Position numbers and translations under genes: made by a program. From the IMG/VR virus record IMGVR_UViG_2558860473_000005, positions 1 through 41,949 of that record: a DNA stretch of 41,949 nucleotides. The stretch is one strand, 5' to 3'. Position 1 is the stretch's first letter. Each line of letters opens with the position of its first letter. The stretch comes from a virus. Its lineage: Duplodnaviria > Heunggongvirae > Uroviricota > Caudoviricetes. Of this stretch, positions 1,690 to 41,949 are shown in pieces. The notes beneath the pieces were generated by a model that did not search any database, was not told the origin of the DNA, and was given only the letters and a program-made list of their open reading frames with translations.

Positions 1690-1704
1690 TGGTGTCCCCT
1701 GCAG
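1690..1704 (-). other. 15-nt copy of the tRNA-Arg (argW) 3' end incl. CCA (TGGTGTCCCCTGCAG on + strand); putative prophage attachment core (distal junction)
   Basis: Matches the reverse complement of the argW 3' terminus as I recall it; sits between the host cscB side and the excisionase gene. Confidence 0.55.
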
Positions 1705-1777
1705 ACATCTACTTGAGGCAGCAGGGGATTGATTGGAATGGTGTTTTTTAGATGTGAAAAATATTTTACCCGCTATT

Positions 1778-1978
1778 TTACCCATTGGCGCGGCTTAAGA
1801 GCTTATTTTTGAATTCACAATGGTCACGATATAACCATCTTGCTCGCCCGTGGATAACTTTGGCTTTTGGCAGGTCTCCGGACTTAATCCGGTCATAGAT
1901 GAAGGTCTTACCGAAGCCAGTATCGGCCATGATGAATTTCAAATCAACCAGGGAATCAGGCTGTAGTTCGTGTTGCAT
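1778..1978 (-). CDS. torI: AlpA-family excisionase / recombination directionality factor (TorI-like), 66 aa
   Basis: Sequence MQHELQPDSLVDLKFIMADTGFGKTFIYDRIKSGDLP... recalled as TorI/AlpA family; lies just inside the att fragment, at the opposite prophage end from int. Confidence 0.8.
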   Translation of the reverse strand: MQHELQPDSLVDLKFIMADTGFGKTFIYDRIKSGDLPKAKVIHGRARWLYRDHCEFKNKLLSRANG

Positions 1979-1997
1979 GAGTGCTATCTCCGAATAG

Positions 1998-2013
1998 GGA
2001 ATCGAACCTGCAA
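1998..2013 (-). other. Second tRNA-Arg fragment (T-arm region, GGAATCGAACCTGCAA), not a complete tRNA
   Basis: 16-nt match to the reverse complement of the argW T-arm; flanking sequence is not tRNA-like. Confidence 0.5.
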
Positions 2014-2020
2014 ATCAGGC

Positions 2021-2043
2021 AATAAAAAACCGCATTGATGCGG
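2021..2043 (-). terminator. Rho-independent terminator at the end of the leftward early operon
   Basis: Hairpin CCGCAT-loop-ATGCGG followed by a U-run on the minus strand, just downstream of the 2103 stop. Confidence 0.5.
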
Positions 2044-2102
2044 CGATGGTAGGTCTGGATATCTTGAGAAATGAACTGGCCTCATCGAGTGTGAGGCTGT
2101 GG

Positions 2103-2447
2103 TTAGTCCTTGCGTAACTCGCTAATTCTTCTGTAAGTCTCTGGTGCTTTGTTTCCGTGTATCTTCATTTCAGACTTCAACAGAGCAACGAGGGAATCCC
2201 ATTCGTTGAGGATGCCTTTGAATGCCGGAACGCGCTTTGCAACCTTGTCGAATGAATCCCTGATTTCTGGAATCTGCTCAACAAGTGCAACGCATCGTCG
2301 GAAATCGGCTGCGTCATGTGGAGCGCCGAAGTGATGACCATAGATATTCTTTTTCAGTCCACATGCGATTGAGGCAAGAGTTGCGCTACTGATGCCGACA
2401 TCGCCAGTCGATTGCCATTTCAAAACCTTCATAGCCAAATCTGACAT
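2103..2447 (-). CDS. Hypothetical phage protein (114 aa from the internal start; track ORF extends to 2474)
   Basis: ORF track 2103..2474; GGAGA RBS 6 nt upstream of the ATG at 2447, whereas the 2474 start lies inside an upstream terminator hairpin. Confidence 0.55.
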   Translation of the reverse strand: MSDLAMKVLKWQSTGDVGISSATLASIACGLKKNIYGHHFGAPHDAADFRRCVALVEQIPEIRDSFDKVAKRVPAFKGILNEWDSLVALLKSEMKIHGNKAPETYRRISELRKD

Positions 2448-2460
2448 TTCTTGTCTCCAA

Positions 2461-2482
2461 TAAAAAACCGCCATCAGGCGGC
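2461..2482 (-). terminator. Rho-independent terminator between the zinc-ribbon gene and the 114-aa gene
   Basis: Hairpin CCGCC-atca-GGCGG followed by a U-run on the minus strand. Confidence 0.5.
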
Positions 2483-2547
2483 TTGGTGTTCTTTCAGTTC
2501 TTCAATTCGAATATTGGTTACATTGTTTTCATATATGAATAAATAAA

Positions 2548-2727
2548 TTAGCTTTTTTCGTTGCCTTCGCGATCTTTATTAATTTTGACAAACTCGTTTT
2601 TACCACGCTCTCCAAATGCGTCTTTAGAGTCGTTGTATCCGCAATCGCAGCACACATAATCACCAGACCATCCACGCATTGTTTTTTCTTTTGCAATATT
2701 TCCAGAACCGCATTTTGGACAAGACAT
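2548..2727 (-). CDS. Small zinc-ribbon protein (CPKCG ... CCDCG), 59 aa
   Basis: Two CxxC pairs; GGAGG RBS 7 nt upstream of the ATG at 2727 (track ORF 2548..2760 starts at a TTG). Confidence 0.55.
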   Translation of the reverse strand: MSCPKCGSGNIAKEKTMRGWSGDYVCCDCGYNDSKDAFGERGKNEFVKINKDREGNEKS

Positions 2728-2823
2728 ATCACTACCTCCAAAGCATGAGTGAGATGACAACGTAACATTGATTGGAGATTAACAATAGATTGCTGATGTA
2801 AAAGATATGTATAAGCTTCGCTT

Positions 2824-3603
2824 TCAAAGTGGAGGCTCTGGTAGCGGCATCCAGTGAGTCATTTCATGGGCAAGGATATCTGAGTTAAGTTCCGTCCAAC
2901 TATTCCAATACCCAGATTCATCCCACCATTTAACCTCGACATGCTCGCCGTCTGTCACTAACACATCAGCATACCCTTTCGGCATTCGCTCACTACAGCT
3001 TATCCAACCATCCGGAGTTACCGGAGAGTTGCCAGACAGTGCGTTCTGCAATCGTTCCAGCTTAACGTATTCCTGAACCCTGTTTCCGTCGCACGCCTGA
3101 AGCCATTGCACAGCCTTTTGCGCATCAGTGTGAAAGGTACAAGTGCGACCGTCATCAAATTGCATTTCGTAGAGGTCAGCAACCTGTTTAAACTGCGTTT
3201 GTGGCAACTTGTAAGCCTGGCTTGCATGTACGGCACCATAGAGCATGGCTGCACGGCAGGCGTTCCATCCGACAGCTTTTCCGTGTTCAAACGCGCTGTC
3301 AAAGTCATCATCCATTTCCATCGCATCAGGCACAGATACCGTCTCTGGAGGGGCGGCGTAAAGCGGAGTTACGGTAATTTCGTACTCGTTTATATCCTCG
3401 TCGCTGATATTTGCGAAATAGCGAAGGATGCCTTTCTCTCCACGACTACGAGCGTCAGAGTCCTGAATGATATACGCCACAGGCTCTGCTTCCAGCGATG
3501 CCAGCGCAATCCGTGCCAGTTCCATTTGTTCACCACGGGTAAGCCCGTTTTCAAGCGGATTTTTAATGAACAATTCAATACGTTCTTTGGTAATAGTGGC
3601 CAT
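2824..3603 (-). CDS. Phage protein with C-terminal DUF551-like domain, 259 aa
   Basis: C-terminal segment DGWISCSERMPKGYADVLVTDGEHV...WMPLPEPP resembles DUF551 of lambdoid early-region proteins. Confidence 0.6.
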   Translation of the reverse strand: MATITKERIELFIKNPLENGLTRGEQMELARIALASLEAEPVAYIIQDSDARSRGEKGILRYFANISDEDINEYEITVTPLYAAPPETVSVPDAMEMDDDFDSAFEHGKAVGWNACRAAMLYGAVHASQAYKLPQTQFKQVADLYEMQFDDGRTCTFHTDAQKAVQWLQACDGNRVQEYVKLERLQNALSGNSPVTPDGWISCSERMPKGYADVLVTDGEHVEVKWWDESGYWNSWTELNSDILAHEMTHWMPLPEPPL

Positions 3604-3605
3604 GG

Positions 3606-3797
3606 CTATTTCACCTTAATCTCAACATTTCGCAGTTTTAGCTCCACTGGCAGGTCTGACTTTCCGGTTAAAGCTAATGCGAGATTTTCTGGAGTAATGA
3701 GAGCTGTTATTGTTTTCCCCATCGCCAGACGAATAATCATTCGTATTTCGCGATCGTCACATGCTCCTGGTCGAACAATTGATATCTGTCCGTTCAT
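3606..3797 (-). CDS. Small hypothetical phage protein, 63 aa
   Basis: AGGAG RBS immediately upstream of the ATG at 3797; start sits 1 nt after the stop of the upstream Ea22-like gene (translational coupling). Confidence 0.5.
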   Translation of the reverse strand: MNGQISIVRPGACDDREIRMIIRLAMGKTITALITPENLALALTGKSDLPVELKLRNVEIKVK

Positions 3798-3798
3798 C

Positions 3799-5049
3799 TC
3801 ACTCTCCTTTGATGCGAATGCCAGCGGCGCGGATTGCATCGATGACTTCAGAAACTTTGTATGCCATTACCGTTTGGTAATCATCGTGAAAATCTGTTCG
3901 ATGAAGCATGCTGCTACGTTCCGGGAGCAGTATTTCCCGCGCTTCCAGTTCAGCAATCCGCTTCTCTGCTGCTTCCAGCTCATCCAGCAGCGCGTTATCT
4001 TCATCCTCTCTCAACACCACTGTGTCGAAGCTTTCGGCCTGCTTTTTGATTTTTGCAATCAGCGCCTGTTTGTTGATGTTGCTCATTTGGCGGACTCCTG
4101 TGCTCCAAGTTTTGCCCCATACTTCAAGGCTGTTATGCGAAATCAGCGCTTCGCGAACGCATGGCCTGTAGTAGTGATGGAAAGCGAAGGTCAGGCCGAG
4201 TTTTGTCGGGCGATCGTGTTTGCCAAGCAATCCCAGGCGAATACAGATAGTCGTTGCCGTGTAGCCAGAGTGATAGCCAGCAGCACGCTTCATAACTGTT
4301 TCTGCCAGAATGGTGCGGAAATCAGTGCGCCCGAAATTGGTACCTTCGAAAGCGGCGTTAACCACTTCGTCTGTAAGATGTGAATCATCAACTATGCTCA
4401 TACCGCTTCCCCCCTGACGAAGCTGGGCGGCGAACTCGTCGCATACGTGCGTTAAAGAGCAAATCTGGATAGCAGGATGCTCGCGCAACAATTCAACACC
4501 CTGCGCCCGCACTTCAGCCAGGAAGGCGTCGGTGGCTGGGTGCTCTGTCTGGCTATGCATTGCCCATTCAGATAAGTACTCGAAGCAACGGCGAAACTCC
4601 TGCCAATCACTGCACATGTTTAGGTTTCCGCCTTTACACTCGAACTGGTAATTCTCTAAACGGTCTGCAAACGCTCTGCCATTCTCTATGGCACCAAGTG
4701 GAGTTTCAGACTTCAGCCAAGCATTCTCCGCAGCCAGCGCCGCGAGATTAGTCTCAAGCTCTGCAATTCGACACATAGCATCAATATTTGTGTCCTCCAG
4801 GCGCTTAATTTCACCAAGCAGCTCCAGTGCAACCTTTGGGTTGAACGCGGCAACATGACGAGCGTTGTTCTCTGCATTTTTCTGTCCATCAAAGCCGGTC
4901 CATTTGATAACGTCTTCACATCGTTCATCACCGGGCGTGTGCACCGCATAAGTACCAGTATCCGTCGAAATAAATGCGACCCATTCGTCTGGTGTTGCCT
5001 TTTCTGCCGCCTCACGCAGTACCTGATAGTCAATTGTCATTCTCGCCAT
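3799..5049 (-). CDS. Ea22-like (ead/Ea22 family) early-region protein, 416 aa
   Basis: N-terminal IDYQVLREAAEKATPDEW motif typical of Ea22-like proteins; coiled-coil-rich. Confidence 0.7.
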   Translation of the reverse strand: MARMTIDYQVLREAAEKATPDEWVAFISTDTGTYAVHTPGDERCEDVIKWTGFDGQKNAENNARHVAAFNPKVALELLGEIKRLEDTNIDAMCRIAELETNLAALAAENAWLKSETPLGAIENGRAFADRLENYQFECKGGNLNMCSDWQEFRRCFEYLSEWAMHSQTEHPATDAFLAEVRAQGVELLREHPAIQICSLTHVCDEFAAQLRQGGSGMSIVDDSHLTDEVVNAAFEGTNFGRTDFRTILAETVMKRAAGYHSGYTATTICIRLGLLGKHDRPTKLGLTFAFHHYYRPCVREALISHNSLEVWGKTWSTGVRQMSNINKQALIAKIKKQAESFDTVVLREDEDNALLDELEAAEKRIAELEAREILLPERSSMLHRTDFHDDYQTVMAYKVSEVIDAIRAAGIRIKGE

Positions 5050-5702
5050 CCTTCACAGTTGTAATCACTACAGCCTTCAAAATCATATGGGCTGTACTGC
5101 CAGGTTATTTTTCCGCAATGCGGACAATTCCAACGCACCTTCCCGCTTCGCGACTTCTTTCTTCTGTTCTGCTCTTTCAACCAGTCAGGCATGACCAAAC
5201 CTGCGCCCTGAACCATTGTTCTGCGGTTAAATTTATTGATATTGAACGTCCGGCGCTTTGCTGCATCAGCAATGGAAAATGGCAACCAAACTATTCCTGG
5301 TTCGTTTTTGTTGGCGACGCTAAAGATGGTAGCTTTACTGAAGTCATCTGTTGGCAATCCACCGTGTTGAAGCCAGTAAACATCGTTGCCGTTCCAGCTA
5401 CCTTTTTTGTAGGCCACATACGCAGTGCAATCTGACTTAATCAGGCTTTCTGTAGGGATGTACTGGCAATCAACGTGCCACACTGCCATTGCATCCACGC
5501 TATCAGCGCAAACAGGCTGATCGATATCTCGCCCACAATTCCAGGCTTTTTGGGCTTTTTCCAGCGTGTAAACATGAGCGCGATCGATATCAGAACTGTA
5601 ACCATTGCCGTTATGGCAATGGAATGAAGCGTTATTGCCCACAGTTTCACGCGAGCACATCATGTAAAAACGGTTAGTCACTGGCTGCCTCCTTTGCGCC
5701 AC
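5037..5702 (-). CDS. Hypothetical protein with C-terminal CxxC...CxxC zinc-finger motif, 221 aa
   Basis: ORF in the leftward early operon; C-terminal NCPHCGK...CSDYNCEGW. Confidence 0.55.
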
Positions 5703-5841
5703 ATCGCATTCAGATATTTGTTTTCATTCACTGATGGAAAAGAATTTCTCTTAAGCAATTCCTCTCTCGATGGCATTGGCTTTACGCGTTGGCGAATAAT
5801 CATTTCTGCCGGAAGAATGCCGGGATTGTATGCAAGTCCTC

Positions 5842-6123
5842 TCATGATTTACTCTCCACGAACTGGTCAATAGCCATGCTAAGTGACACACCTAAAGTCT
5901 CGATATGCTGCTGAATATCCTGTAGCGTCTGCGCCTGAGATAACAGGATTTCACGGTTGCATAATTCTTTAACCAGATGCTCAAACTTGCTGTAATAACC
6001 GATACGGCTTAGTGTTTCTTTCCCTGCATTCTCGCCTTCTTTGATAATTCCTCTTTCACTAAGAATCAGGTCGTGTTTGGTTCCGGTAATAACGTATTTT
6101 CCGAGGTCGATGTTTAGCTTCAT
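5842..6123 (-). CDS. Hypothetical phage protein, 93 aa
   Basis: ORF in the leftward operon with consistent spacing to neighbours. Confidence 0.5.
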
Positions 6124-6139
6124 TGTTAATTATTCCATG

Positions 6140-6454
6140 TTAATTTATTCGTATGCCTGCTCTTTCTTCATCGAGTTTTTTTAGCTTGTATCGCATAGCT
6201 CTTACTGAATAAATTGAGCGGCAGGTTGCAATTGCTATTTCTTCTGCGGAGAACTTACCGAAAAGTGATACTTCGGCTCTTGTCCATCGTCTTCCACGAA
6301 GTCGGCTAACAATGTCAGCGCCAATCCTTGTTGCTTTCGCCATTACTGCTTTTTCAGTCCTTTCCAGTTTTTCAGCGATAACTTCAACTGGCATTGTTGC
6401 CGCTACTTCGCGCAAGAAATCGACTTCCCATTTCTCCCAAGGAGTCTTTTTCAT
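6140..6454 (-). CDS. Hypothetical protein, possibly a tandem Myb/SANT-like DNA-binding fold, 104 aa
   Basis: Two repeated W/R-rich helical segments; inference only. Confidence 0.45.
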   Translation of the reverse strand: MKKTPWEKWEVDFLREVAATMPVEVIAEKLERTEKAVMAKATRIGADIVSRLRGRRWTRAEVSLFGKFSAEEIAIATCRSIYSVRAMRYKLKKLDEERAGIRIN

Positions 6455-6465
6455 AGGCGATACCG

Positions 6466-6954
6466 TTATTTGATAAGAAGTGAAGGTTTCCCAACTTTGA
6501 GTTGAGCGCCGGGGATATTTATTCCTGCTTTTAGTTGGTGTTTGATTGCCAGTTTGTCGGCTTTAATTGTCGTTTCAAACTCAACGTATTCAGGAGGAAG
6601 GGCGCTTGAGTCGATTATTTCTACAATTTCTGATGGTTTGCGGATTGTTACCTGGTGAATACCTGCTCGAATCTTTTTCTTGCCAACCATTTCAAGCGAT
6701 GAGGCTATATATGCCATAATGCTATCAATCTTATTTTGAATTACTGCTGCTCGTTCATTCAGTGACTTTGCCTCGTCCTTGAGGCGTTCAGCATAACCAG
6801 ATTCATTTTTAATAATGGCAAGAAGTTGCTCTATTTTATCGGTAAATTCTCCTTCCATGCCTTCTATTGTGTCAGCAATCATCTCTGGTTCTAAATCTGA
6901 ATCCATCAATTTTGCGTATTCATTGGCTATTTCATATAGTTTGCTCACTGGCAA
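6466..6954 (-). CDS. Siphovirus Gp157-family protein (companion of RecT-type recombinases), 162 aa
   Basis: Recalled family similarity; overlaps the RecT gene stop as in phage recombination modules. Confidence 0.65.
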   Translation of the reverse strand: MPVSKLYEIANEYAKLMDSDLEPEMIADTIEGMEGEFTDKIEQLLAIIKNESGYAERLKDEAKSLNERAAVIQNKIDSIMAYIASSLEMVGKKKIRAGIHQVTIRKPSEIVEIIDSSALPPEYVEFETTIKADKLAIKHQLKAGINIPGAQLKVGKPSLLIK

Positions 6955-7834
6955 CCTCCAGTTTCGCTTTGCATTCTATGTAAATGGCTTGTACGTTCTG
7001 CTGCAATTTCATTCCAGATGTCAGGCGATATGCTTCTGCAAAATATCGCTTCAAATCATCCATGTTTTCTGCCTGAGCCATTTCATCACAAAGAAGTTGT
7101 GCTTTTTCCATAATTTCCTGCTGGCGTTTCCGTTCATCTTCGCGGATATCTTCCTCTGATTTGTGCGGCATAACTGGTTCCTGATGCATACCTTCATCCT
7201 CGTTAAGCAGGTGAATGGCATTATCCAGTCGCTGGGCTTTAGGCCAGTATTTGCTGGCGCGTTTAACTATTGTTTTACGCGCCATCTCTTCCCAGAATGT
7301 TTTCCACGGTCCATTCTTTGCCTTGCTCGTTGCTTCCACAGCTTTAATTTCTGCCAGACTCATTTCTTCAGTCAGGTAGTCACCATCTGCTGTTTTAACC
7401 GTGCAATAACCTCCAACAATAGAGCCTCGCTCACCAAATGCGTTGTATTTGTGGGTTGGTGCTGAATCAAGGCCATTTGATTCATAGGTGTCGTTTGAGT
7501 ACACCAGTTTGCATTGCCCCCACTTAATTGATCCTGTCGATTGCGCAAGATGAAGTAATCCCATGTAACTGATATCAAGGCACACCATGCCGTCGCGAGG
7601 AACCAGATAAGCCAGTTTGCTGGCCGGGTTTAAGGTGATGCCGATCGCCGCAACATTGATGATGGCGTTCTGTGCGCTGGTTGGATTTGCCAGTGCCGTT
7701 TTAGCCAGGTAATCATTTTTCTGGAAATACTGAATTGCAAACTGGCTTTCCTTAGCCCATGTCACCGTCTGTTCAGTCAATGCTCCGCAGAATAACTGCT
7801 CCTGCTGTTTAACGAATTCAACGATATTGCTCAT
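6932..7834 (-). CDS. recT: RecT-family single-strand annealing recombinase, 300 aa
   Basis: Conserved RecT-like core (LAYLVPRDG...); position matches lambdoid recombination modules. Confidence 0.8.
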   Translation of the reverse strand: MSNIVEFVKQQEQLFCGALTEQTVTWAKESQFAIQYFQKNDYLAKTALANPTSAQNAIINVAAIGITLNPASKLAYLVPRDGMVCLDISYMGLLHLAQSTGSIKWGQCKLVYSNDTYESNGLDSAPTHKYNAFGERGSIVGGYCTVKTADGDYLTEEMSLAEIKAVEATSKAKNGPWKTFWEEMARKTIVKRASKYWPKAQRLDNAIHLLNEDEGMHQEPVMPHKSEEDIREDERKRQQEIMEKAQLLCDEMAQAENMDDLKRYFAEAYRLTSGMKLQQNVQAIYIECKAKLEVASEQTI

Positions 7835-8142
7835 GCAGCTTCTCCATAAATATGTCTGCGTTTGAATATTGCGAAGGCATATTCAGCCTTAACTCTTTCG
7901 GTTATTGCATCCCAGAACCATTCAGCGGCTTTTTCCTGATAGTTACAGTCATCATCTTCCAGCCAGTCGATAGCGTCCTTAGTGTGTTCATCTGGTTTAT
8001 ATGAGCGAAGCATTTCGCTTATTGGGTCGCAACGTTTGCAGAGGCGATCAACTTCACTGTTGATTCGTTCGTAATCTTCATCAGTAAAACTTGCGATGAT
8101 TTGCGATATTTCACGCTTATCATTCAGAGTCAGAATCATCAT
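7831..8142 (-). CDS. Hypothetical early protein, 103 aa
   Basis: ORF overlapping the RecT start by 4 bp. Confidence 0.5.
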   Translation of the reverse strand: MMILTLNDKREISQIIASFTDEDYERINSEVDRLCKRCDPISEMLRSYKPDEHTKDAIDWLEDDDCNYQEKAAEWFWDAITERVKAEYAFAIFKRRHIYGEAA

Positions 8143-8227
8143 CTTTCTCCTGTTCTTTGTGCTGATTGAGCATTTTGTTCATCTGACGAATGAATTCTTC
8201 GTCTGACCAGCTATCTGTAAAACTCAT
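8120..8227 (-). CDS. Small ORF, 35 aa (MSFTDSWSDEEFIRQMNKMLNQHKEQEKDDDSDSE), acidic C-terminus
   Basis: Hand-translated; ATGA overlap with the cIII-like stop and overlaps the next gene start; below the ORF-track size cut-off. Confidence 0.3.
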   Translation of the reverse strand: MSFTDSWSDEEFIRQMNKMLNQHKEQEKDDDSDSE

Positions 8228-8394
8228 GGACGGCCTTGTTGTTTCAAAATATCCCAAAGCTTTTCGAGCAAACTTTTCATTCTTGGTTGTTTAAAGTCTG
8301 CTCCGGTTAAAATATTTTTTCGTGAATGCTGTACCGATAAAATCGGGTTGAAAGGGCGAACCGATGCCGCCCCTGCAATAGCGAACTGTTGCAT
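8224..8394 (-). CDS. cIII: CIII-like protein (FtsH inhibitor family), 56 aa
   Basis: AAGGAG RBS 6 nt upstream of the ATG at 8394; FAIAG motif and LLEKLWDILKQ segment resemble lambda CIII; the track ORF 8224..8499 is an over-extension. Confidence 0.5.
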   Translation of the reverse strand: MQQFAIAGAASVRPFNPILSVQHSRKNILTGADFKQPRMKSLLEKLWDILKQQGRP

Positions 8395-8458
8395 AGGATG
8401 CTCCTTCTGTTTGATTGCATAACGAAAACGCCTCAAGTGAAGCGTTATTGGTATGCAT

Positions 8459-8484
8459 ATAAAAAAGCCCTCACATTGGAGGGC
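8459..8484 (-). terminator. Rho-independent terminator upstream of the cIII-like gene
   Basis: Hairpin GCCCTC-acattg-GAGGGC followed by a U-run on the minus strand. Confidence 0.45.
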
Positions 8485-8577
8485 AAAGAAGATTTCCAAT
8501 AATCAGAACAAGTCGGCTCCTGTTTAGTTACGAGCGACATTGCTCACATAGCAGACTCGTAAATCTGCTATAGGCGC

Positions 8578-8739
8578 TTATTCGCATCGCATGACAACAT
8601 CAAATTTTTCGAGATTACTTTGTCGCAACAATCCTTCTTCTACGCGGTCAGCTTTTCTATAATTATCAAATTCGAAATGTTTAATTACTTCTTTTGTTTC
8701 TCGCTCTATAACTTCAACAATGTATTTCTTATTCATCAT
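8578..8739 (-). CDS. Small hypothetical protein, 53 aa (MMNKKYIVEVIERETKEV...)
   Basis: Hand-translated; ATGA overlap with the upstream gene stop; AT-rich. Confidence 0.35.
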   Translation of the reverse strand: MMNKKYIVEVIERETKEVIKHFEFDNYRKADRVEEGLLRQSNLEKFDVVMRCE

Positions 8740-9032
8740 TCTTCCCCAAGAGCTTTTCTTATTGCTGCGAGACCTTTATTAACAGCTCCATACCATTCTG
8801 GATATGTTGTCGTTGTTCTATTTTTGGTTTGCTTAAGTAATAACTGAAGTGCTTCGAGAAGGTCAGGTGCTGCCGCTATTAGATTGGCATCTTCAATGCA
8901 TTGAACTTCCTCACAGATTGCAATATACGAACGCCAGCCTGCGCCATTTTCAAGTGAGTCTGCCTGGATGATTTTAATCTCATCGCCATCCATCATTATT
9001 TCCCACTTACCTTCAGTACCTTTAAATTCCAT
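8736..9032 (-). CDS. Hypothetical early protein, 98 aa
   Basis: ORF in the leftward N-dependent operon. Confidence 0.5.
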   Translation of the reverse strand: MEFKGTEGKWEIMMDGDEIKIIQADSLENGAGWRSYIAICEEVQCIEDANLIAAAPDLLEALQLLLKQTKNRTTTTYPEWYGAVNKGLAAIRKALGEE

Positions 9033-9050
9033 GTTAGCCTCTGTTGTTTA

Positions 9051-9083
9051 TGCCAAAAATAAAGGCCACCATCAGGCAGCCTT
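9051..9083 (-). terminator. Imperfect hairpin plus U-run (tL1-like)
   Basis: Hairpin AAGGCCACC-atca-GGCAGCCTT with two mismatches, followed by a U-run on the minus strand; overlaps the stop of the 9072..9323 gene. Confidence 0.3.
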
Positions 9084-9323
9084 GTTGTAAATGTTGCAGG
9101 TATCAAGTAAGTAATTAGATGGAGCGCCATAAATTATGAATTCATCGTTTGTCGGGTCCATCTCCATCTCTTGGCCTATTGCCATTCTTGCGTCAGTGTC
9201 GTCAGCGGCGAAGCATAAAACAGCCCACGCCCCCATTGTTTTAAAAAGAACTGCAATTGGCTGTGGTTTTACTGAATTTGCGTTAGCGCGAAAATCACAA
9301 ATCGCACTTTCATGAAACTCCAT
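9072..9323 (-). CDS. Hypothetical early protein, 83 aa
   Basis: ORF immediately downstream of N. Confidence 0.5.
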   Translation of the reverse strand: MEFHESAICDFRANANSVKPQPIAVLFKTMGAWAVLCFAADDTDARMAIGQEMEMDPTNDEFIIYGAPSNYLLDTCNIYNKAA

Positions 9324-9331
9324 ATCTCACC

Positions 9332-9658
9332 TCAAATAAGTGGTTTGCTGCCTAATTTCATTTTCTGGCGACCAACACAAGTCACACCCATTTCACTGCG
9401 TGGCTTGCTGTACCATGTGCGCTGATTCTTGCGCTCAATACGTTGCAGGTTGCTTTCAATCTGTTCGTGGTATTCAGCCAGCACCGTAAGGTCTATCGGA
9501 TTCAGTGCGCTTTCTACTCGTGATTTCGGTTTGCGATTCAGCGAGAGAATAGGGCGGTTAACTGGTTTTGCGCTTACCCCAACCAACAGGGGATTTGCTG
9601 CTTTCCATTGAGCCTGTTTCTCTGCGCGACGTTCGCGGCGGCGTGTTTGTGCATCCAT
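9332..9658 (-). CDS. N: Antitermination protein N (lambda-type), 108 aa
   Basis: Begins MDAQTRRRERRAEKQAQWKAANPLLVG (arginine-rich boxB-binding motif); essentially lambda N by recall; start set at the internal Met of the track ORF. Confidence 0.9.
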   Translation of the reverse strand: MDAQTRRRERRAEKQAQWKAANPLLVGVSAKPVNRPILSLNRKPKSRVESALNPIDLTVLAEYHEQIESNLQRIERKNQRTWYSKPRSEMGVTCVGRQKMKLGSKPLI

Positions 9659-34978: not shown

Positions 34979-35311
34979 TTAATCATCCATGGATGGATTG
35001 AGCTTATCTCGTGTTGATGTGGCGGTTTTCCCTACATTCCTAAGCCAAGCTTTCAAATCCTTGATATTGTCATTGATTTCATGAATATCTTCCTTTTTTA
35101 ATCTGTCAATATTATTTTCAATAATTTCAATGGATTGCTCAATATCAGATATAGTGAATGATAGTTTGCTCTTCTCATCTGTTATTGAGTTTTTAAGTAC
35201 TTCGTTCTCAGTCTTGAGGTCAGATATCTTTTGCTTTAAAGATGCCAGTTGGCACTGAACCACAATGAGTGCGATAGCTATCACGACAAATGTTGCATAC
35301 ACGCTAACCAC
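34979..35311 (-). CDS. Membrane-anchored coiled-coil protein (N-terminal TM helix then coiled coil), 110 aa; cassette gene C
   Basis: Hydrophobic YATFVVIAIALIVVQ segment followed by heptad-like K/E-rich sequence; GTG start; AT-rich by eye. Confidence 0.55.
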   Translation of the reverse strand: MVSVYATFVVIAIALIVVQCQLASLKQKISDLKTENEVLKNSITDEKSKLSFTISDIEQSIEIIENNIDRLKKEDIHEINDNIKDLKAWLRNVGKTATSTRDKLNPSMDD

Positions 35312-35322
35312 CTTGGTTTTAT

Positions 35323-35676
35323 CTACTTGAGGACTAATCCGTTAAGTGCATCAAGGATTTTAGATACGTAACTACCGAAAATGTAGGTGCAAAAAGCAAA
35401 AACAACCGTGACGACAGCACCGATAGCCTTAATGGTTGTTTTCATTGTGGTGATACTAGTTTCAATACTGCTAAGCCTGGTGTCAATTGACTTCACGTCT
35501 TTTTGAATGATCTCAATGTCACGCTTGATATAGCTGACATCAGACTCTAACTTTGCGACCCTTGATTCCATGCCATCACCTCCTTCGCCTCCAGACCTGT
35601 TCTTATCCTTTGTGTTCTCAGGATGGATACGAGATATGTTTTTTTCACTAATTGATGTTTCAATTATATCAAGCAT
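35323..35676 (-). CDS. Tail-anchored coiled-coil membrane protein (XhlA-like architecture), 117 aa, or 82 aa from the internal start at 35571; cassette gene B
   Basis: Coiled-coil segment then C-terminal hydrophobic helix AIGAVVTVVFAFCTYIFGSYV; strong GGAGG RBS before the internal Met; 8-bp overlap with gene A if the long start is used. Confidence 0.55.
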   Translation of the reverse strand: MLDIIETSISEKNISRIHPENTKDKNRSGGEGGDGMESRVAKLESDVSYIKRDIEIIQKDVKSIDTRLSSIETSITTMKTTIKAIGAVVTVVFAFCTYIFGSYVSKILDALNGLVLK

Positions 35677-36079
35677 CTTTCACATGACTCACGGAAAAGT
35701 AGGCTTGCGCAGAATGCACTAGAGTGTTGTCTTTGCTGATGGATACTCGAATTAAGTAATCCCCGTCAGCATCAAGTTTGCATTTATCGAAATGCATAGA
35801 CATCGATGTTGCCAAGGTGTTCCTGATCTCATTGTGTCCTTTTGCCTTAATCCATACGCCTTTATCACCGCTTACACTGATTTCTAACTCATTCTCGATT
35901 CTATAGAGACAAGCTGAAACCCAATATGGTGTATCATGAATTAAACCGAGAAAGTGAACCTGAAAATCAAGGTCAGTAGTCACAGGTAACTCATCTGTCT
36001 CCATGATTAACATGGGTGATTTTTCATCATTTTCAGACTTATGGTAAGGAAAAAGGAATGCTATTTTTTCAGTGTTCAT
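35669..36079 (-). CDS. Hypothetical soluble protein, 136 aa; cassette gene A
   Basis: Start overlaps the mnt stop by 4 bp (translational coupling); no recognisable family. Confidence 0.55.
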   Translation of the reverse strand: MNTEKIAFLFPYHKSENDEKSPMLIMETDELPVTTDLDFQVHFLGLIHDTPYWVSACLYRIENELEISVSGDKGVWIKAKGHNEIRNTLATSMSMHFDKCKLDADGDYLIRVSISKDNTLVHSAQAYFSVSHVKDA

Positions 36080-36318
36080 TTCCCATCCCTTAAACGTTTA
36101 AGTACATTGATGGTTACATCAAGAGCCTCTTGCTCTGACTTTGCCAGTTGCTGACTGCTTAATGGTATAACCTGCTCTTTATGCATTTTTATCCACAACT
36201 GGATAGCAGCAATAATCTCAGCATTGATAGAGCGTCGATTAGTGGCAGCAATATGCGTAAGTTGCTGTTTTATCTCATCTGGCATTCTTACGTTGAATTG
36301 CGGATCATTTCTAGCCAC
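36076..36318 (-). CDS. mnt: Mnt-like ribbon-helix-helix repressor, 80 aa
   Basis: MARNDPQFNVRMPDEIKQQL... resembles P22 Mnt; divergent from arc; GTG start with GGAGA RBS. Confidence 0.75.
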   Translation of the reverse strand: MARNDPQFNVRMPDEIKQQLTHIAATNRRSINAEIIAAIQLWIKMHKEQVIPLSSQQLAKSEQEALDVTINVLKRLRDGK

Positions 36319-36411
36319 GTCATTCTCCTTTTATTTATTGACATGCTAGAACGGTAGTAGTACGCTTTCAATAGTAGTACGGTGCTATCATTTGATGAAA
36401 TGGAGGTGAAT
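36319..36411 (+). promoter_or_regulatory. immI-like divergent promoter/operator region (Pant-like -35 TTGACA 36338-36343; direct repeats TAGTAGTAC at about 36355 and 36373)
   Basis: Intergenic region between divergent mnt and arc; candidate -35/-10 elements on both strands overlapped by two 9-bp direct repeats. Confidence 0.45.
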
Positions 36412-36573
36412 ATGCAAGGTGCAAGAAAAATGCCGCAGTTCAATTTGCGGTGGCCTAAAGAAGTATTGGATTTGGTACGCAAGGTGGCGGAAGAGAATGG
36501 TCGGTCTGTTAATTCTGAGATTTATCAGCGAGTAATGGAAAGCTTTAAGAAGGAAGGGCGCATTGGTGCGTAA
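36412..36573 (+). CDS. arc: Arc repressor (ribbon-helix-helix), 53 aa
   Basis: [53 protein letters not shown] is near-identical to P22 Arc by recall; GGAGGTG RBS. Confidence 0.9.
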
Positions 36574-36577
36574 AGTT

Positions 36578-36609
36578 GAAGCCCCAACTGCTGGAACAGT
36601 CAGGGCTTC
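36578..36609 (+). promoter_or_regulatory. Extended hairpin in the arc-ant intercistronic region
   Basis: GAAGCCC...GGGCTTC with inner ACTG/CAGT stem; no U-run on either strand. Confidence 0.35.
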
Positions 36610-36641
36610 GGTATCAACAAAACTTACGAGGTATTATTGAT

Positions 36642-37532
36642 ATGTCAAGCTTAGCAAAGTCAACTGTAAATTGCACTAATAGCATCATCATTTCTGACGT
36701 CAAGATTCATATGGATTCAGAGGGGCGTTACTCGCTTAATGACCTTCATGTAGCGTCTGGGAAGGAGGAAAAACATCAGCCAGCTTTCTTCATGCGTAGA
36801 AATGAAACTATTGAATTAATTAATGAAATTTTTAATTCTGCGGATATGCAGAATAAGAATCCCGTCCTTTCTAAGAAAGGTCGATATGGTGGAACCTACG
36901 TGTGCAAGGAGCTTGTTTACTCCTACGCCATGTGGATTAGTGCATCCTTTGCGCTGAAGGTTATCCGTGCATATGACGCAATGGTTACTGCCACACAAGA
37001 TAGGAAGGCTATTGGAGGTAAAACTTCAGTAGCTGAACGCACACCGCTACGAGATGCAGTAAACATGCTGGTAGGAAAGAAAGGACTTCGCTATGACGAT
37101 GCATACAATATGGTTCATCAGCGTTTTGGTATTGACAGCATTGATGAACTTTCAATTGAACAAATCCCGCTGGCCGTAGAGTACATCCACAGGGTAGTGC
37201 TTGAAGGTGAGTTCATTGGCAAACAAGAGAAGAAAACCAACGAGCTTTCTGCAAAAGAAGCAAACAGCCTTGTATGGTTATGGGATTATGCCAACCGTTC
37301 ACAGGCATTATTCCGCGAACTGTATCCGGCGCTAAAACAAATTCAATCGAACTATTCCGGCAGATGCTACGACTACGGTCATGAGTTCTCGTATGTTATC
37401 GGAATGGCGAGAGACGTTTTAATAAACCACACACGAGATGTTGATATTAATGAGCCAGACGGACCAACGAATCTTTCCGCATGGATGAGACTTAAGAATA
37501 AAGAATTACCTCCTTCAGTACATAACTACTGA
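36642..37532 (+). CDS. ant: Antirepressor Ant (KilA-N domain N-terminus), 296 aa
   Basis: KilA-N-like segment ([24 protein letters not shown]...); downstream of arc as in P22 immI; GAGGT RBS. Confidence 0.8.
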
Positions 37533-37570
37533 CAGATAACCAACGCAACGACCCAGCTTCGGCTGGGTTT

Positions 37571-37593
37571 TTTTATGCCCAAAATTCACCGTA
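37571..37593 (+). terminator. Rho-independent terminator after ant
   Basis: Hairpin CCCAGC-ttcg-GCTGGG followed by TTTTTTT. Confidence 0.75.
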
Positions 37594-37632
37594 GCCATGC
37601 TGCGGCGATTCCTTGTATCTGGAGCAAATTAA

Positions 37633-39441
37633 ATGACAGATTCAATAAATGCCAATGTTGTAGTGAGCATGCCATCGCAACTCTTCACTATGGCTCGTTC
37701 TTTTAAAGCCGTAGCCAATGGCAAAATTTATATCGGTAAAATTGACACTGACCCGGTAAATCCTGAAAACCAGATTCAGGTTTATGTAGAGAACGAAGAC
37801 GGCTCTCACGTTCCTGTTTCTCAACCAATCATCATTAACGCTGCTGGTTACCCAGTATATAACGGACAGATTGCCAAGTTTGTAACCGTGCAAGGCCATT
37901 CTATGGCTGTTTATGATGCGTATGGTGCACAGCAGTTTTATTTTCCTAATGTGCTGAAGTATGACCCTGATCAGTTTGGTCCAGACTTCAAAGAGCAGTT
38001 ATCTCAATCAGGGGAATACATTAATGATGATTCAAAAGGTGATGCATTAATTGGCGTAAGACAGCCCGTTGCCGGGTCGGTAGCTATCACACAGCATGAT
38101 AAAAACGCACAAATAATCAACTTAAAAGATTTTGGTGCTAAGTGCGATGGTGTAACTGATGACACAGTGGCAATTCAGGCTGCTGTAGCTGCTGCGCATA
38201 CTGGTGTCCGTATAGTTCAACCTGCAGGGGTTTGCCTTACATCTCAGCCGTTGTCATTCACTAGTCCTGCATTTTGGTATGGAGATGATGGCGCTCGCAT
38301 TAAGCTCATTAGTGGCAGTCATGACTATGTTATGGAAATTGATCTTCGCGGGCCTAGTGGTTCGTTCTGGGGTTATGGGTCACATATTGAAAACATTATC
38401 TTTGATGGTGGTGGTCACGCAAAAGATGGCCTTTCATTGCGTGGTGTTATCGGAGGTATATTCAAAAATATTCGTGGGACAAATATATCAAGGACCGCTA
38501 TTCATGAATGGTGGACCCAACTTTGCCACTATGAAAATATTCAATGCAGTAATAATATTGAAGCATTCCAAACAACCCCTATTCACGGAATCTTATCTGA
38601 TTGTGAGTTTGGAACTGGTAATGATCGTGGGTCTTCTGCAAATACTTACATGAATACCACTATTGAACATACCTCTGGTAGTGGGATTTGTGGGGTGTTT
38701 ATGTCTAATTGTACATTTATAAATGGCACATCAGAAGGTAACGATATTGGCATTGAGTTTGGTCACGCTACTGATGATAGAAACCAATCAGTTGGGAATT
38801 CAGTTATTGGCATGGATCTTGAAGTTAATTCTTTAACTGATGTGTTATTACATAAAACAACATATGCAAATGACTTTATTGGTCTAAAAGCTGGTTATTC
38901 ATCTCCAGCCATTCAGGTGCAAGGCTCATATGCTAATAGCTTTATTGGTGGAGTAAGCAGTGGTATAGATTTTGACTCATCATCGCATGATAATAAAGTA
39001 ATAGGTATGAATCTTTTAGGCAACGATTCTATCATCGTAGATAACGGGTTAAGAAATTCATATGAGAATATTTTCAATATTTCATCTGGAGCTAAAAAAG
39101 AAAGCACTAACCCTTATCCATCGCGTAGCAACAATATAATTTCATCAAATGGTACTGTGCAAATTAACCCATTTTTATCATCATACTGTGTTGTGTCGGC
39201 TACTGGTTCACCAATTAATGTTACGTCTGTAGCAAAAAAATTAGACGGTGCGACTATTGATATGACTATTCATAACATTTCTGGATCTGATGAATTAATA
39301 GTAAACTGGTCTTCTGACTTCAGAGTTTCTGGATGGACAAGCCCGGCAACAGGGCGCCACCGGTCTATAAGATTTGCTTATGATGCAAACTACGGATACT
39401 GGACTGCTATATCTATGAGTCAGTCAGATATTCTGAACTAA
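37633..39441 (+). CDS. Tailspike protein: P22-type N-terminal head-binding domain plus divergent beta-helix receptor-binding domain, 602 aa
   Basis: First ~115 residues match the P22/Sf6 tailspike N-terminus by recall; the rest has repetitive G/N/S/T-rich strands typical of parallel beta-helix depolymerases. Confidence 0.85.
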
Positions 39442-39453
39442 GATTTATGCTGT

Positions 39454-39476
39454 GGGGGGGATTATTCCCCCTGTTT
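39454..39476 (+). terminator. Terminator between the convergent tailspike and acyltransferase genes
   Basis: Hairpin GGGGGG-attatt-CCCCC followed by TGTTTTACTTT; overlaps the acyltransferase stop. Confidence 0.55.
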
Positions 39477-40595
39477 TACTTTCCTCATATCCACCAGTTT
39501 ACCAGGGATGCTCATAAATATCTTATTTCTAATCTTGTTAGTAAGTATCACTTCAATATATTTATGCGAAAGAAATGCAATAAAAATTGATAAAATTAGT
39601 AAAATAGTGAACCCGTATACATTGTGCATCACACCTGGATTATTAGCCTCAACCTGCCATGAAATGTAACTACCTACCTGGTTATGAAGCAGATACCATG
39701 AGAAGGAAATATCACCAAGCATTACAAAAAATGATGGTGTAATTTTTGTTATAACTTCATCATTTATTACGAACGCCACTAAGAGGAAGTATGCAATGAT
39801 GCCTGTCTTTAAATTATAACCTTCAATAGAACCATTGAAGACTGCAGTCATAAAAATTAATGCCGATATAGCAGTGAATGAGTATTTTAATCTATTGCTC
39901 CATGATTTTGCTGAACGCACTGTGTGCCCAGCAAGGATGCCTAAAGCAAATTCAATTACTATCGGATTTGTTAAAAAGCTAAGTTCTGGAGTACCAGTTT
40001 TATAACCTGAAGTGGATAATGTTACATTTCCAGTCAACATATATCCTACAAGGATAGTTGTCATTATCCATACGACTATGCCAGAGGTTCTTTTATTGAA
40101 TAATAAACAAAGTGCGAATACAAGATAGAAGTATAATTCATAGTTAAGCGTCCATCTAATAACAAATATACCACCAGCATCAACATACAAAGGAGGGTAC
40201 GCATCCGTAAAAGGAGAGAATGTTAAAGCACTCAGTAAGTTTTCCACCTTAGCTTGGTCAACGAAGATTCCAACTTCCCATGTAAAGTAGAAAGCTGTAA
40301 AGAGAGCAATAAAATATGTAGGAAAAATCCTTGTGAGTCTTTCTACGGAAAAGAATATAGCAGACTTTATACCAGATGGCTTACGGCTAGTGATATGCAT
40401 CATAATAAAACCACTTATTACGAAGAACAAATCAACACCAGCAGAACCCCAAGATAAATATTTATTAGGGATAGTTAAATCTCCATACAATGGTGATAAC
40501 CAAAATCTGTAGTGAAAAAGAACTACAGACAATGCAGCTAATCCTCTAAGTATCTGTACTGAGCTAAGTTTATTGTTCATTATTAAACCGATCAC
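39462..40595 (-). CDS. Acyltransferase family 3 (OafA/Oac-like) integral membrane O-acetyltransferase, 377 aa
   Basis: Multi-TM protein with acyltransferase-3-like N-terminal motif (ILRGLAALSVVLFHY); very AT-rich by eye; between tailspike and int, as oac is in Sf6. Confidence 0.75.
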   Translation of the reverse strand: MIGLIMNNKLSSVQILRGLAALSVVLFHYRFWLSPLYGDLTIPNKYLSWGSAGVDLFFVISGFIMMHITSRKPSGIKSAIFFSVERLTRIFPTYFIALFTAFYFTWEVGIFVDQAKVENLLSALTFSPFTDAYPPLYVDAGGIFVIRWTLNYELYFYLVFALCLLFNKRTSGIVVWIMTTILVGYMLTGNVTLSTSGYKTGTPELSFLTNPIVIEFALGILAGHTVRSAKSWSNRLKYSFTAISALIFMTAVFNGSIEGYNLKTGIIAYFLLVAFVINDEVITKITPSFFVMLGDISFSWYLLHNQVGSYISWQVEANNPGVMHNVYGFTILLILSIFIAFLSHKYIEVILTNKIRNKIFMSIPGKLVDMRKVKQGE

Positions 40596-40791
40596 TTTCT
40601 GTAAATGTCATTCACATGATTATGCGATAAAATCCATAGTAATCCATTATAAATTTTTCTATATGAAACATAAGAAAAATTCACTGAGTTGTTGAATTGA
40701 TACATCTCATCTTTCAACGACAATGTCTACAAAACACACAAAGCTTTGCACTGGATTGCAATGATTTGTGTCATTCGATAGTTAATGTGGA

Positions 40792-41949
40792 TCACTCCAC
40801 CTTTTCATCAAGCCAGTCCGCCCACCATTGCATCATTTCTCTGCGCTTATCGAGATACTGAGCATGGTTGTAAATCCCGCGCACAGAACCGCCGTTGGCA
40901 TGTGCCAGCTGCACTTCAATAGCGTCAGCAGGCCATTCGTGCTCGTTCATAATCGTGCTGAATTCATGCCTGAATCCGTGACCGCTTTCCAGACCTTCAT
41001 AGCCGATTTGTTTGATCACAAGCAATACCGCGTTCTCGCAGATTGGCTTCTTCTTATCGTTGCGCCCGGCAAAAACAAACTCTGAGACTGGTTTGGTGAT
41101 TGAGCTTAGCGTAGTGAGAAGTTCAACTACCTGGTCTGACATAGGAACCACATGAATTTTGCGTCCCTTCATCACGCTGGCGTCGATGGTGATAATCCTG
41201 TTTTCAAAATCGACGTTCTTCCATAGCATAGAACGAAGCTCTTTCGTTCTTAGGGCTGTGTAGCGTAAAACTTTGGTCGCAATGAGCGATACGATACTTC
41301 CTGAAAATGTTGCCAGTGCTTTGTTGAATGCCGGGATCTGGTCTGCAGGAAGAAACGGGAAGTTCTTCTTGCGGTATCCTTTCATGGCGTCAGCAAGGTC
41401 AGGTGCCGGGTTATATTTAGCCCTGCCGGTGACAATAGCGTAACGGAAAACCTCGCCGCATCTTCTGCGGGCTTTATTGGCTCGTTCCATTGCACCGCGA
41501 TCTTCAAATCTGCGGATTACTTCCAGCAGTTGCATTGGCTCAATATCCTGAATTTCAAGGCCGCCGATGATAGGTAAAATGTCGTCATCAAACATTTTTG
41601 CAAGTTCAGTCGCATACCCTACTGACCATACTTGCTTCTTGTGCTCGTACCATTCCTTGTAAATCGCACTAAAGGAATTGTTGTTAGACGAAGCCTTTTT
41701 CGCCTTTACCGGATCGATGCCAACCGAGATGTCTTTCCTCGCGGTCCATGCCTTATCCCTTGCCTCCTGCAAAGTCATAAGCGGATATTTTCCTACGGTC
41801 AGTATTTTTTCCTTACCGTCAATCTTGTAGCGAAGCTGCCATACCTTTTTCCCGGATACAGGGACATAAAGGTACAGGCCATTACCATCGAGAAGGCGGT
41901 ATGGTTTTTCTTTCGGCTTTGCTGCTTCAATCTGCTTAACGGTGAGCAT
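40792..41949 (-). CDS. intS: Tyrosine integrase (P4-type phage integrase family; IntS/Sf6 Int-like), 385 aa
   Basis: N-terminal SAM-like domain and C-terminal catalytic domain with conserved R...HGFRH...Y residues; start codon at the last 3 nt of the window. Confidence 0.85.
   Translation of the reverse strand: MLTVKQIEAAKPKEKPYRLLDGNGLYLYVPVSGKKVWQLRYKIDGKEKILTVGKYPLMTLQEARDKAWTARKDISVGIDPVKAKKASSNNNSFSAIYKEWYEHKKQVWSVGYATELAKMFDDDILPIIGGLEIQDIEPMQLLEVIRRFEDRGAMERANKARRRCGEVFRYAIVTGRAKYNPAPDLADAMKGYRKKNFPFLPADQIPAFNKALATFSGSIVSLIATKVLRYTALRTKELRSMLWKNVDFENRIITIDASVMKGRKIHVVPMSDQVVELLTTLSSITKPVSEFVFAGRNDKKKPICENAVLLVIKQIGYEGLESGHGFRHEFSTIMNEHEWPADAIEVQLAHANGGSVRGIYNHAQYLDKRREMMQWWADWLDEKVE

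Follow-up and report, generated by a model that had tools for sequence, protein, structure and literature searches.

The element that occupies positions 1690-41949 of IMG/VR record IMGVR_UViG_2558860473_000005 raises the question of how genes typical of lambda and genes typical of P22-like phages came to stand side by side in one genome. The stretch that was analysed, called the window below, is 41,949 nt long. In the original prediction, which had been made from the sequence alone, the element was described as a genome-scale mosaic in which lambda-like regulatory and lysis modules had been fused to Sf6/P22-type replication and virion modules. The comparisons reported here indicate that window 1690-41949 is very probably one P22-like (Lederbergvirus) lambdoid temperate prophage, which appears to be intact and to be an ordinary mosaic that arose by allele exchange. 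The element is a new combination in a thoroughly described kind of phage.

About 65 phage-type open reading frames (ORFs) were found from position 1690 to the window end. They are directed leftward from 1778 to 10652 and rightward from 10764 to 34978, and a short mixed-strand block follows up to the integrase gene. The virion genes are the following:

21002-22854, + strand: small and large terminase subunits (Pfam Terminase_3)
22856-27310, + strand: portal, scaffold and coat proteins of the CUS-3 subtype (Pfam P22_portal, 5e-170; P22_CoatProtein, 3e-75)
27316-30363, + strand: a small ORF, gp4, gp10 and the gp26 tail needle with an Sf6-type knob (317 aa)
30363-34978, + strand: gp14 and the ejection proteins gp7, gp20 and gp16, internally mosaic with intragenic breakpoints at 32125 and 32999
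37633-39441, + strand: tailspike (Pfam Head_binding, 2.4e-65, and a pectate-lyase-like match)

The P22-type virion cluster is complete and has the canonical order (terS, terL, portal, scaffold, coat, gp4, gp10, gp26, gp14, gp7, gp20, gp16, tailspike), and it contains no long-tail genes. Together with the early layout N-cI-cro-cII-O-helicase-nin-Q-lysis this places the element in Lederbergvirus. Pfam searches with a contig identical to this part of the window (see below) yielded P22_Tail-4, Phage_stabilise and Phage_tail_NK, and P22_gp7, Inj_translocase, Phage_P22_gp16 and Head_binding were also found. At the level of alleles, TerS is 97% identical to that of CUS-3, and TerL is 100% identical to those of both CUS-3 and Sf6. 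The portal, scaffold and coat proteins share 97%, 98% and 94% of their amino acids with CUS-3, in contrast to 56%, 33% and no match with Sf6, and 35%, no match and 29% with P22. The earlier view of a P22/Sf6-like block from terminase to tailspike was thus correct for the complete P22-type gene set and incorrect for the head genes, which belong to the CUS-3 subtype and not to that of Sf6. The tail needle, with its 317 aa, is longer than the Sf6 needle of about 282 aa (Sf6 gene 8254-9102), and its gene contains a 42-nt tandem repeat of 2.5 copies (29613-29715) at the place where the similarity to CUS-3 and HK620 stops.

The ends of the element are marked by these features:

1-1248: gene of a sucrose/oligosaccharide MFS permease (cscB by annotation in relatives)
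1690-1704: att core at the prophage end distal to int, TGGTGTCCCCTGCAG, identical to the final 15 nt of argW
1998-2013: a second argW-derived motif, the 16-mer GGAATCGAACCTGCAA, in a region annotated in HK620 as cII-activated integration promoter
40792-41949, - strand: integrase IntS, a P4-family tyrosine recombinase (Pfam Arm-DNA-bind_3, Phage_int_M and Phage_integrase)

The only exact match of TGGTGTCCCCTGCAG in the window is that at 1690-1704, and none was expected by chance; the sequence is the 3' end of tRNA-Arg(CCT) argW, as in E. coli QML220601. The int ORF ends exactly at 41949, the last position of the window, and a tRNA scan revealed no tRNA gene inside the window. Contig AHHP01000003.1 (GCA_000498275.1), retrieved by an exact-sequence search with the tailspike, is 100% identical to window 27633-41949 and extends further. 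Its argW gene is found 162 nt beyond the start of int, and yfdC and mlaA come next. The far att site is located about 160 bp outside the window, and the element extends about 175 bp past the window end. Its site in the E. coli chromosome is between cscB and argW, a locus that is also occupied by 683R2 and 611R6. Position 1690 as the start and argW as the integration target, both of which had been proposed, were thereby verified. The same is true for the assignment of the integrase to the P4 family: it is 35% identical to P4 Int over 402 aa (E 1e-70) and carries Arm-DNA-bind_3, and matches to lambda Int or P22 Int were not found (tblastn, E <=0.01). It is 99-100% identical to the integrases of Sf6, HK620 and CUS-3. 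Arm-DNA-bind_3, the catalytic domain, the core copy and the adjoining argW together identify it as an argW-targeting member of the IntS/P4 family.

The spacer between cscB and the att core (1249-1689) contains a short ORF that is annotated as a DUF4942 fragment in relatives and may be what is left of an earlier element at the argW hotspot. Within argW itself GGAATCGAACCTGCAA directly abuts the att core. In the phage the 15-mer and the 16-mer lie 293 bp apart, with the xis/torI gene in between, and the same pair is found 308 nt apart in Sf6, HK620, Kapi1, 683R2, 611R6 and the Z1323 prophage. The xis gene appears to be located within an old 30-nt block of argW homology. In the CUS-3 record (CP000711) the inner 16-mer (40192-40207) is annotated as "attR core", and the record ends there. 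In the prophage of E. coli UM146, which matches the window as CUS-3 does, torI/xis (2144-2379) is located beyond the inner motif. Therefore, the CUS-3 GenBank record may be incomplete, with the final ~300 bp and the excisionase gene in them missing.

Alternatively, the element could be the remnant of a defective prophage, or two prophages joined into a chimera by the assembly, and not a functional phage genome. The source is a draft assembly, and prophages at argW are often decayed, one example being CPS-53 of K-12, the prophage cited in the HK620 int annotation. However, each function is present in a single copy and in canonical order, all essential genes align to their homologues at full length, and neither insertion sequence (IS) elements nor pseudogenes were found in the element. 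In addition, the left end carries a copy of the att core, argW adjoins the right end, the right 14.3 kb are identical in two assemblies, and individual junctions recur in independent phages. A remnant or chimera is therefore unlikely, and, as far as the reading frames can tell, the prophage is likely to be intact.

A further question is whether the lambda-like genes point to a direct contribution of lambda. The features that are relevant for this question are:

9332-9655, - strand: antiterminator N, lambda/Sf6 allele (start codon not fixed; open frame to 9748)
9769-9783, - strand: boxB of nutL, identical to that of lambda
9993-10652, - strand: CI repressor, hybrid relative to lambda (Pfam HTH_3 and Peptidase_S24)
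10764-10979, + strand: Cro, HTH_3 type, VT2-Sakai/Nil2 immunity allele (Pfam HTH_3, 6.3e-12)
11005-11019, + strand: boxB of nutR, identical to that of lambda
11099-11392, + strand: CII activator, lambda allele (98% aa to lambda; Pfam Phage_CII, 5e-48)
14083-16929, + strand: nin region with a small ORF with two transmembrane (TM) segments, a PHROG 343 ORF, NinB, NinE, NinF, Roi (Rha/KilAC), YbcO, RusA and NinH
16926-17549, + strand: late antiterminator Q, lambda allele (100% aa to lambda Q; Pfam Antiterm)
17592-17845, + strand: promoter PR' (TTGACT-17-TAAATT, promoter scan) and lambda-type late leader
18624-19841, + strand: lysis cassette with holin S, endolysin R and Rz, in which Rz1 is embedded (19597-19788)

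Seven segments share 90-98% of their nucleotides with lambda: N (9357-9684, 94%), nutL (9746-9833, 98%), the 3' part of cI (9999-10403, 93%), nutR-cII (10986-11388, 97%), ninE/F (15038-15375, 96%), Q-PR'-tR'-orf64 (16925-17845, 97.4% to lambda 43885-44805) and S-R with the 5' part of Rz (18507-19652, 90%). Cognate parts occur together, i.e., N with both lambda boxB sites and Q with PR'. The N protein is 91% identical to lambda N and 94% to that of Sf6 (Pfam N36, 2.5e-26), and S and R are 98-99% identical to their counterparts in lambda, Sf6 and CUS-3. The predicted set of lambda-like genes was thus confirmed for N, cII, ninE/F, Q, PR', S and R, but not for ninH and Rz. NinH shares only 56% of its amino acids with lambda NinH and hence is not the lambda allele, and Rz is 98% identical to that of Sf6, 90% to that of P22 and 59% to that of lambda.

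The similarity of these segments and the 100% identical Q protein could be taken as signs of a recent direct hybrid of lambda with an Sf6- or P22-like phage. However, all seven are closer to a P22-like phage or prophage (683R2, Sf6, HK620, Kapi1, CUS-3 or the Z1323 prophage) than to lambda, and lambda covers only 3.9 kb, less than 10% of the element. Several P22-like phages with a Q 98-99% identical to lambda Q have already been published, as have repressors whose C-terminal domain is lambda-like and whose N-terminal domain is akin to those of L, VT2-Sa and Nil2 (PMC2629481). A direct lambda hybrid is therefore very improbable. Because every lambda-like segment is closer to another P22-like phage, no fusion with lambda is needed, and to speak of lambda modules "fused" to Sf6/P22 modules is misleading, as the layout is standard in P22-like phages. 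Judged from these alignments, the mosaic pattern is the normal, long-described lambdoid state and not the trace of a special lambda fusion event.

An Rfam int-alpA RNA motif (RF02996) was detected at 20199-20261 on the + strand, with 41.1 bits at a threshold of 35.8 bits. Its neighbours are the lysis genes on one side and two small ORFs on the other, the integrase gene being far away, and it comes just after a 140-bp block that is conserved in CUS-3, HK620, P22 and Sf6.

The immunity region had been predicted to be P22/Sf6-like with regard to the CI N-terminus and Cro, and this could not be upheld. The C-terminal 129 aa of CI are 97.7% identical to lambda cI, and over the N-terminal 90 aa the identity falls to 28% for lambda and 27% for both P22 and Sf6. 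None of the Cro proteins of lambda, P22, Sf6 and HK620 matched the window Cro in tblastn searches, and those of P22 and Sf6 share only the HTH_3 fold class with it; the Cro of 683R2, in contrast, is 100% identical. The cI-5'/operator/cro segment (10380-11000) has 94.2% nucleotide identity over 97% of its length to VT2-Sakai and Nil2, about 94% to many Shiga toxin (Stx) phages, and 99.0-99.7% to the P22-like phages 683R2, Dewey, 720R6 and Louie, and 63 phage records cover at least 80% of this query. Because the segment matches these phages and not lambda, P22 or Sf6, the immunity is assigned by its sequence to the VT2-Sakai/Nil2 type, with an operator function that is predicted on the same basis. 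Accordingly, lambda immunity (imm-lambda) was ruled out by the 28% over the N-terminal 90 aa and the lack of a match to lambda Cro, and the P22 immC and the Sf6 (434-like) immunity by the 27% over the N-terminal domain and the lack of matches to their Cros. The domain assignments indicate that CI is composed of a VT2-Sakai/Nil2-type HTH_3 DNA-binding domain and a lambda-type S24 autocleavage domain. Downstream, TTGC-N6-TTGC motifs were found at the lambda PRE position (11108-11121) and, within Q, at the lambda PaQ position (17213-17226). The motif is not enriched in the scan (six found versus four expected), and only these two sites at lambda positions were taken seriously.

To determine the extent of the mosaicism, the element was compared with 50,697 phage records and 5,426 complete E. 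coli genomes. The best matches among the phage records are all P22-like Lederbergvirus phages, namely Gally, 611R6, Kapi1, 683R2, CUS-3, HK620 and Sf6. The alignable part of the 40.3 kb amounts to about 4 kb for lambda, 10.3 kb for P22, 11.8 kb for Sf6, 17.5 kb for HK620, 22.1 kb for CUS-3 and 23.7 kb for Kapi1, the best named phage. At least 80% of either half was found in none of the phage records and in none of the complete E. coli genomes. A greedy tiling with ten relatives and a threshold of 90% identity or better needed 26 tiles and left nine gaps of together 7.8 kb. The prediction of a genome-scale mosaic that is collinear with no single known phage thus holds at the sequence level. That the element could be a collinear variant of one known phage (CUS-3, Kapi1 or Sf6) with point divergence and a few indels is extremely improbable, because in spite of the shared gene order and the 22.1 and 23.7 kb that are matched, CUS-3 and Kapi1 each leave more than 40% unaligned, including the immunity region, most of the early-left arm, the ejection proteins, the tailspike receptor domain and the acyltransferase gene, and no record in the searched collections holds 80% or more of either half.

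The positions of the junctions agree with the expectation that they would fall inside genes such as cI or at gene boundaries with ATGA overlaps. Clustering of the alignment ends gave 83 breakpoints, and 44 of them are no more than 30 nt away from a gene end, compared with 11.1 +/- 3.1 for random positions and a maximum of 23 in 2,000 trials. Twelve 4-nt start/stop overlaps are present, 11 of them ATGA/TCAT and one GTGA, and the ATGA of ninH/Q is at the same time the start of the lambda Q match and the end of the CUS-3 match. Intragenic junctions at domain borders were found in cI (10403), in the tailspike gene (37976) and in ant (about 37020-37200), and further intragenic junctions in Rz, the tail needle gene, gp20, gp16, terS, portal and O.

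Several points weigh against the interpretation as an intact prophage formed by ordinary allele exchange. For 7.8 kb no match of at least 90% exists in the ten locally compared relatives. The operators are not convincingly defined: a repeat search found weak TAC..GTA-type repeats in OL, and none was scored in OR. Inducibility and short-tailed particles are predictions from the gene content, and inactivating point mutations that do not truncate a gene would escape detection. What the acyltransferase modifies and what the tailspike binds are likewise predictions. The sequence itself shows the gene content and order, the affinities of the modules, the breakpoints and the integration site, and from these we infer viability, virion morphology, regulatory specificities and the acyltransferase substrate.

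The mosaic becomes most apparent in the comparison with the closest known phages. The K1-specific phage CUS-3 shares the argW integration, the integrase (100%), TerS to gp10 (94-100% aa), O and helicase (99%), roi-ybcO-rusA-ninH, S, R, Rz and gp16 (96%), but it differs in its immunity region, N and early-left arm, and has a 21-type Q, an endosialidase tailspike and neuO instead of the acyltransferase gene. Kapi1 (vB_EcoP_Kapi1, MT813197) has the best overall nucleotide coverage and agrees with the element in its RecT module, in O and the helicase, in the nin region, in the lambda-type Q, in the CUS-3-type head genes and in the argW integration. In contrast to the element, it has a P22-type C2/Cro immunity, another N, tRNA genes after Q, another Rz, other gp14, gp20 and gp16, another tailspike receptor domain, and no acyltransferase gene. 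Sf6 (NC_005344) has in common the integrase, the xis/attP region, the lambda-type N with boxB, S-R-Rz/Rz1 (95% nt) and a tail needle with a knob, and it likewise carries an acyltransferase gene in the interval from tailspike to int. It is set apart by a 434-like immunity, by O and helicase proteins of the HK022 type (22-31% aa), by a Q of the 21 type and by portal, scaffold and coat genes of the Sf6 subtype; it also lacks immI, and its Oac is only 26% identical.

The cI-cro immunity allele is shared with vB_EcoP-683R2, Dewey, Louie and 720R6 and with the Stx phages VT2-Sakai and Nil2, the virion genes of the latter two being unrelated. Phage 683R2 also shares the site between cscB and argW, but its replication module and its tailspike differ, its Q is of the 21 type and its head genes belong to the Sf6 subtype. 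Lambda (NC_001416), finally, has in common N and nut, the cI C-terminal domain, cII, ninE/F, Q with PR', S, R and the early gene order, but shows no similarity in the virion genes, int/xis, O and P, the recombination genes, Cro and the cI DNA-binding domain. P22-like phages are known to form one branch of the lambdoid phages, and their early operons are highly mosaic (described for epsilon34, PMC2629481), the ejection proteins and the interval between gene 16 and gene 9 are highly variable (PMC10883804), and Sf101 is a mosaic of CUS-3, Sf6 and HK-phage modules that carries an O-acetylase (PMC4159516). The same architecture and mosaicism have been published for HK620, Sf6, CUS-3, epsilon34 and Sf101, with descriptions in PMC2629481 (epsilon34), PMC4159516 (Sf101) and PMC10883804.

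The replication genes are:

11690-12637, + strand: O-type replication initiator (Pfam Phage_rep_O)
12634-14010, + strand: DnaB-type replicative helicase of the P22 gene 12 type (Pfam DnaB and DnaB_C)

The O protein is 99% identical to that of CUS-3 and 22% to that of Sf6, and has 58% identity to P22 gp18 over the C-terminal part only. The helicase is 99% identical to CUS-3, 90% to P22 and 31% to Sf6 and HK620, and lambda P gave no match to it. The module had been called P22/Sf6-like, which is right for the kind of module and for P22, but not for the Sf6 allele; the allele is that of CUS-3/Kapi1 (97-99% aa) and P22, and not that of Sf6/HK620 (22-31%). Inside the O gene 12-nt iterons (CCGCACATGA...) were found at 12105-12259, which are presumed to be the replication origin. 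The adjacent nin region consists mostly of HK620/Kapi1/CUS-3 alleles, and only ninE/F are lambda-like as well (93-96% aa).

The early-left arm contains the following genes in addition to N:

1778-1978, - strand: excisionase, a TorI/HkaC-type recombination directionality factor (TorI by annotation in relatives)
2103-6123, - strand: "ea" accessory region with a PHROG 1229 protein, an EaG-like protein, DUF551 and an Ead/Ea22-like protein (416 aa)
within 2103-6123, - strand: further ORFs of the "ea" region, i.e., a PHROG 2457 protein, DUF2737 and an Sf6 gp24-like ORF
6140-8142, - strand: recombination module with a Gp157-like protein, RecT and small flanking ORFs
8224-9323, - strand: a cIII-like ORF and three small early-left ORFs (PHROGs 6949, 1273 and 2471)

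The excisionase is 100% identical to Sf6 gp18, HK620 HkaC and the Kapi1 excisionase. The similarity of the ea region to P22, HK620, Sf6, Gally and 611R6 is patchy, and two stretches are unmatched in all ten relatives. An exact-sequence look-up of the 416-aa Ea22-like protein retrieved no record, probably as a result of a different start call. The recombination module (Pfam RecT, 2.6e-33; Sipho_Gp157, 3.2e-36) is 88-100% identical to that of Kapi1 at the amino acid level. The exact 300-aa RecT (6932-7834, - strand) is indexed in 790 blocks of a public assembly collection, and in the four places listed it belongs to lambdoid prophages that differ in immunity/repressor, replication and integration genes. 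Several small ORFs of the element gave no Pfam match; all of them belong to known PHROGs families with unassigned function.

The mixed-strand block to the right of gene 16 contains, apart from the tailspike gene:

34979-36079, - strand: three small ORFs at the position of P22 sieA (PHROGs with unassigned function)
36076-36318, - strand: mnt-like gene of immI (45-48% to P22 Mnt)
36382-36573, + strand: arc of immI (92% aa to P22)
36574-36640, - strand: sar antisense RNA of immI (Rfam sar, 66.3 bits at a threshold of 43 bits)
36576-37532, + strand: ant of immI (C-terminal 170 aa 86% to P22)
39462-40595, - strand: Acyl_transf_3 membrane acyltransferase at the position of Sf6 oac (Pfam, 6e-23)

With mnt, arc, ant and sar between gene 16 and the tailspike gene, the P22-like immI that had been recognized in the original prediction is present. 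Ant is a domain chimera in which KilA-N replaces P22_AR_N and is joined, at about 37020-37200, to the P22-type C-terminal domain. The ORFs at the sieA position encode a coiled-coil protein with an N-terminal TM segment, 87% identical to the product of a CUS-3 ORF, an XhlA-like coiled-coil protein with a C-terminal TM segment, and a soluble 136-aa protein. Homologues of SieA, SieB, gp17, RexA/B and GtrA/B were not detected in the window (tblastn, E <=0.01; type B and C SieA were not searched), and a PADLOC analysis of ten accessory ORFs revealed no defence system and only a marginal JetC coiled-coil match. The claim that exclusion is specified by an acquired module is therefore without basis.

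In the tailspike the head-binding domain is conserved, the receptor-binding domain behind it is unlike that of any of the ten relatives, and matches to PDB sequences are confined to aa 1-188. A 99.6% nucleotide match to the tailspike gene exists in one of the 5,426 complete E. coli genomes, and E. coli QML220601 has the same tailspike at argW without the acyltransferase. The acyltransferase resembles Sf6 Oac in domain and position, with 26% amino acid identity, and its gene has a low GC content of about 36-37%. It gave no nucleotide match in the 50,697 phage records or the 5,426 complete E. coli genomes, and the nearest non-identical proteins, from Salmonella enterica, are 78-79% identical. 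Phase-variable repeats like those of CUS-3 neuO were not found in or near the gene. The enzyme is a candidate O-antigen O-acetylase, and receptor modification, as had been assumed, is plausible. The cassette of tailspike and acyltransferase is present with 98.8-98.9% nucleotide identity in P22-like prophages of GCA_054242325.1 and GCA_054854455.1. These adjoin ybhB and the bio operon, the cassette is located at the prophage end, and no integrase gene was called beside it on that side. It is a tentative possibility that the tailspike receptor domain (aa 189-602) and the acyltransferase form an uncharacterised serotype-conversion/host-range cassette for an unstudied O-antigen, which might move as a unit between P22-like prophages with different integrases.

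From these assignments a life cycle can be proposed. The IntS/P4-family integrase would insert the phage into the 3' end of argW, and lysogeny would be maintained by CI, with its VT2-Sakai/Nil2-type DNA-binding domain and its lambda-type RecA-cleavable domain, backed by mnt/arc/sar/ant as a second immunity region. Early antitermination would be exerted by N of lambda specificity at the lambda-type nutL and nutR, and CII of the lambda allele would act at the PRE- and PaQ-like sites. Replication would start at the iterons within the O-type initiator gene and use the phage's own DnaB-type helicase. The late genes would be switched on by Q of lambda specificity at PR', lysis would be brought about by S, R and Rz/Rz1, and the P22-type short-tailed virion would adsorb via a tailspike directed against O-antigen. 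In the lysogen, the acyltransferase encoded next to int probably changes the surface polysaccharide. The patchwork itself would result from the ordinary exchange of alleles among lambdoid phages, by recombination at gene ends, at domain linkers and at short boundary sequences that are conserved.

The prophage is a clean and complete worked example of lambdoid modular exchange and has little importance beyond annotation, for which it indicates the immunity, antitermination and integration specificities that are expected of its lysogen. The cassette of tailspike and acyltransferase is the sole part with a modest potential for novelty, and it may define an O-antigen specificity or modification that is uncharacterised.

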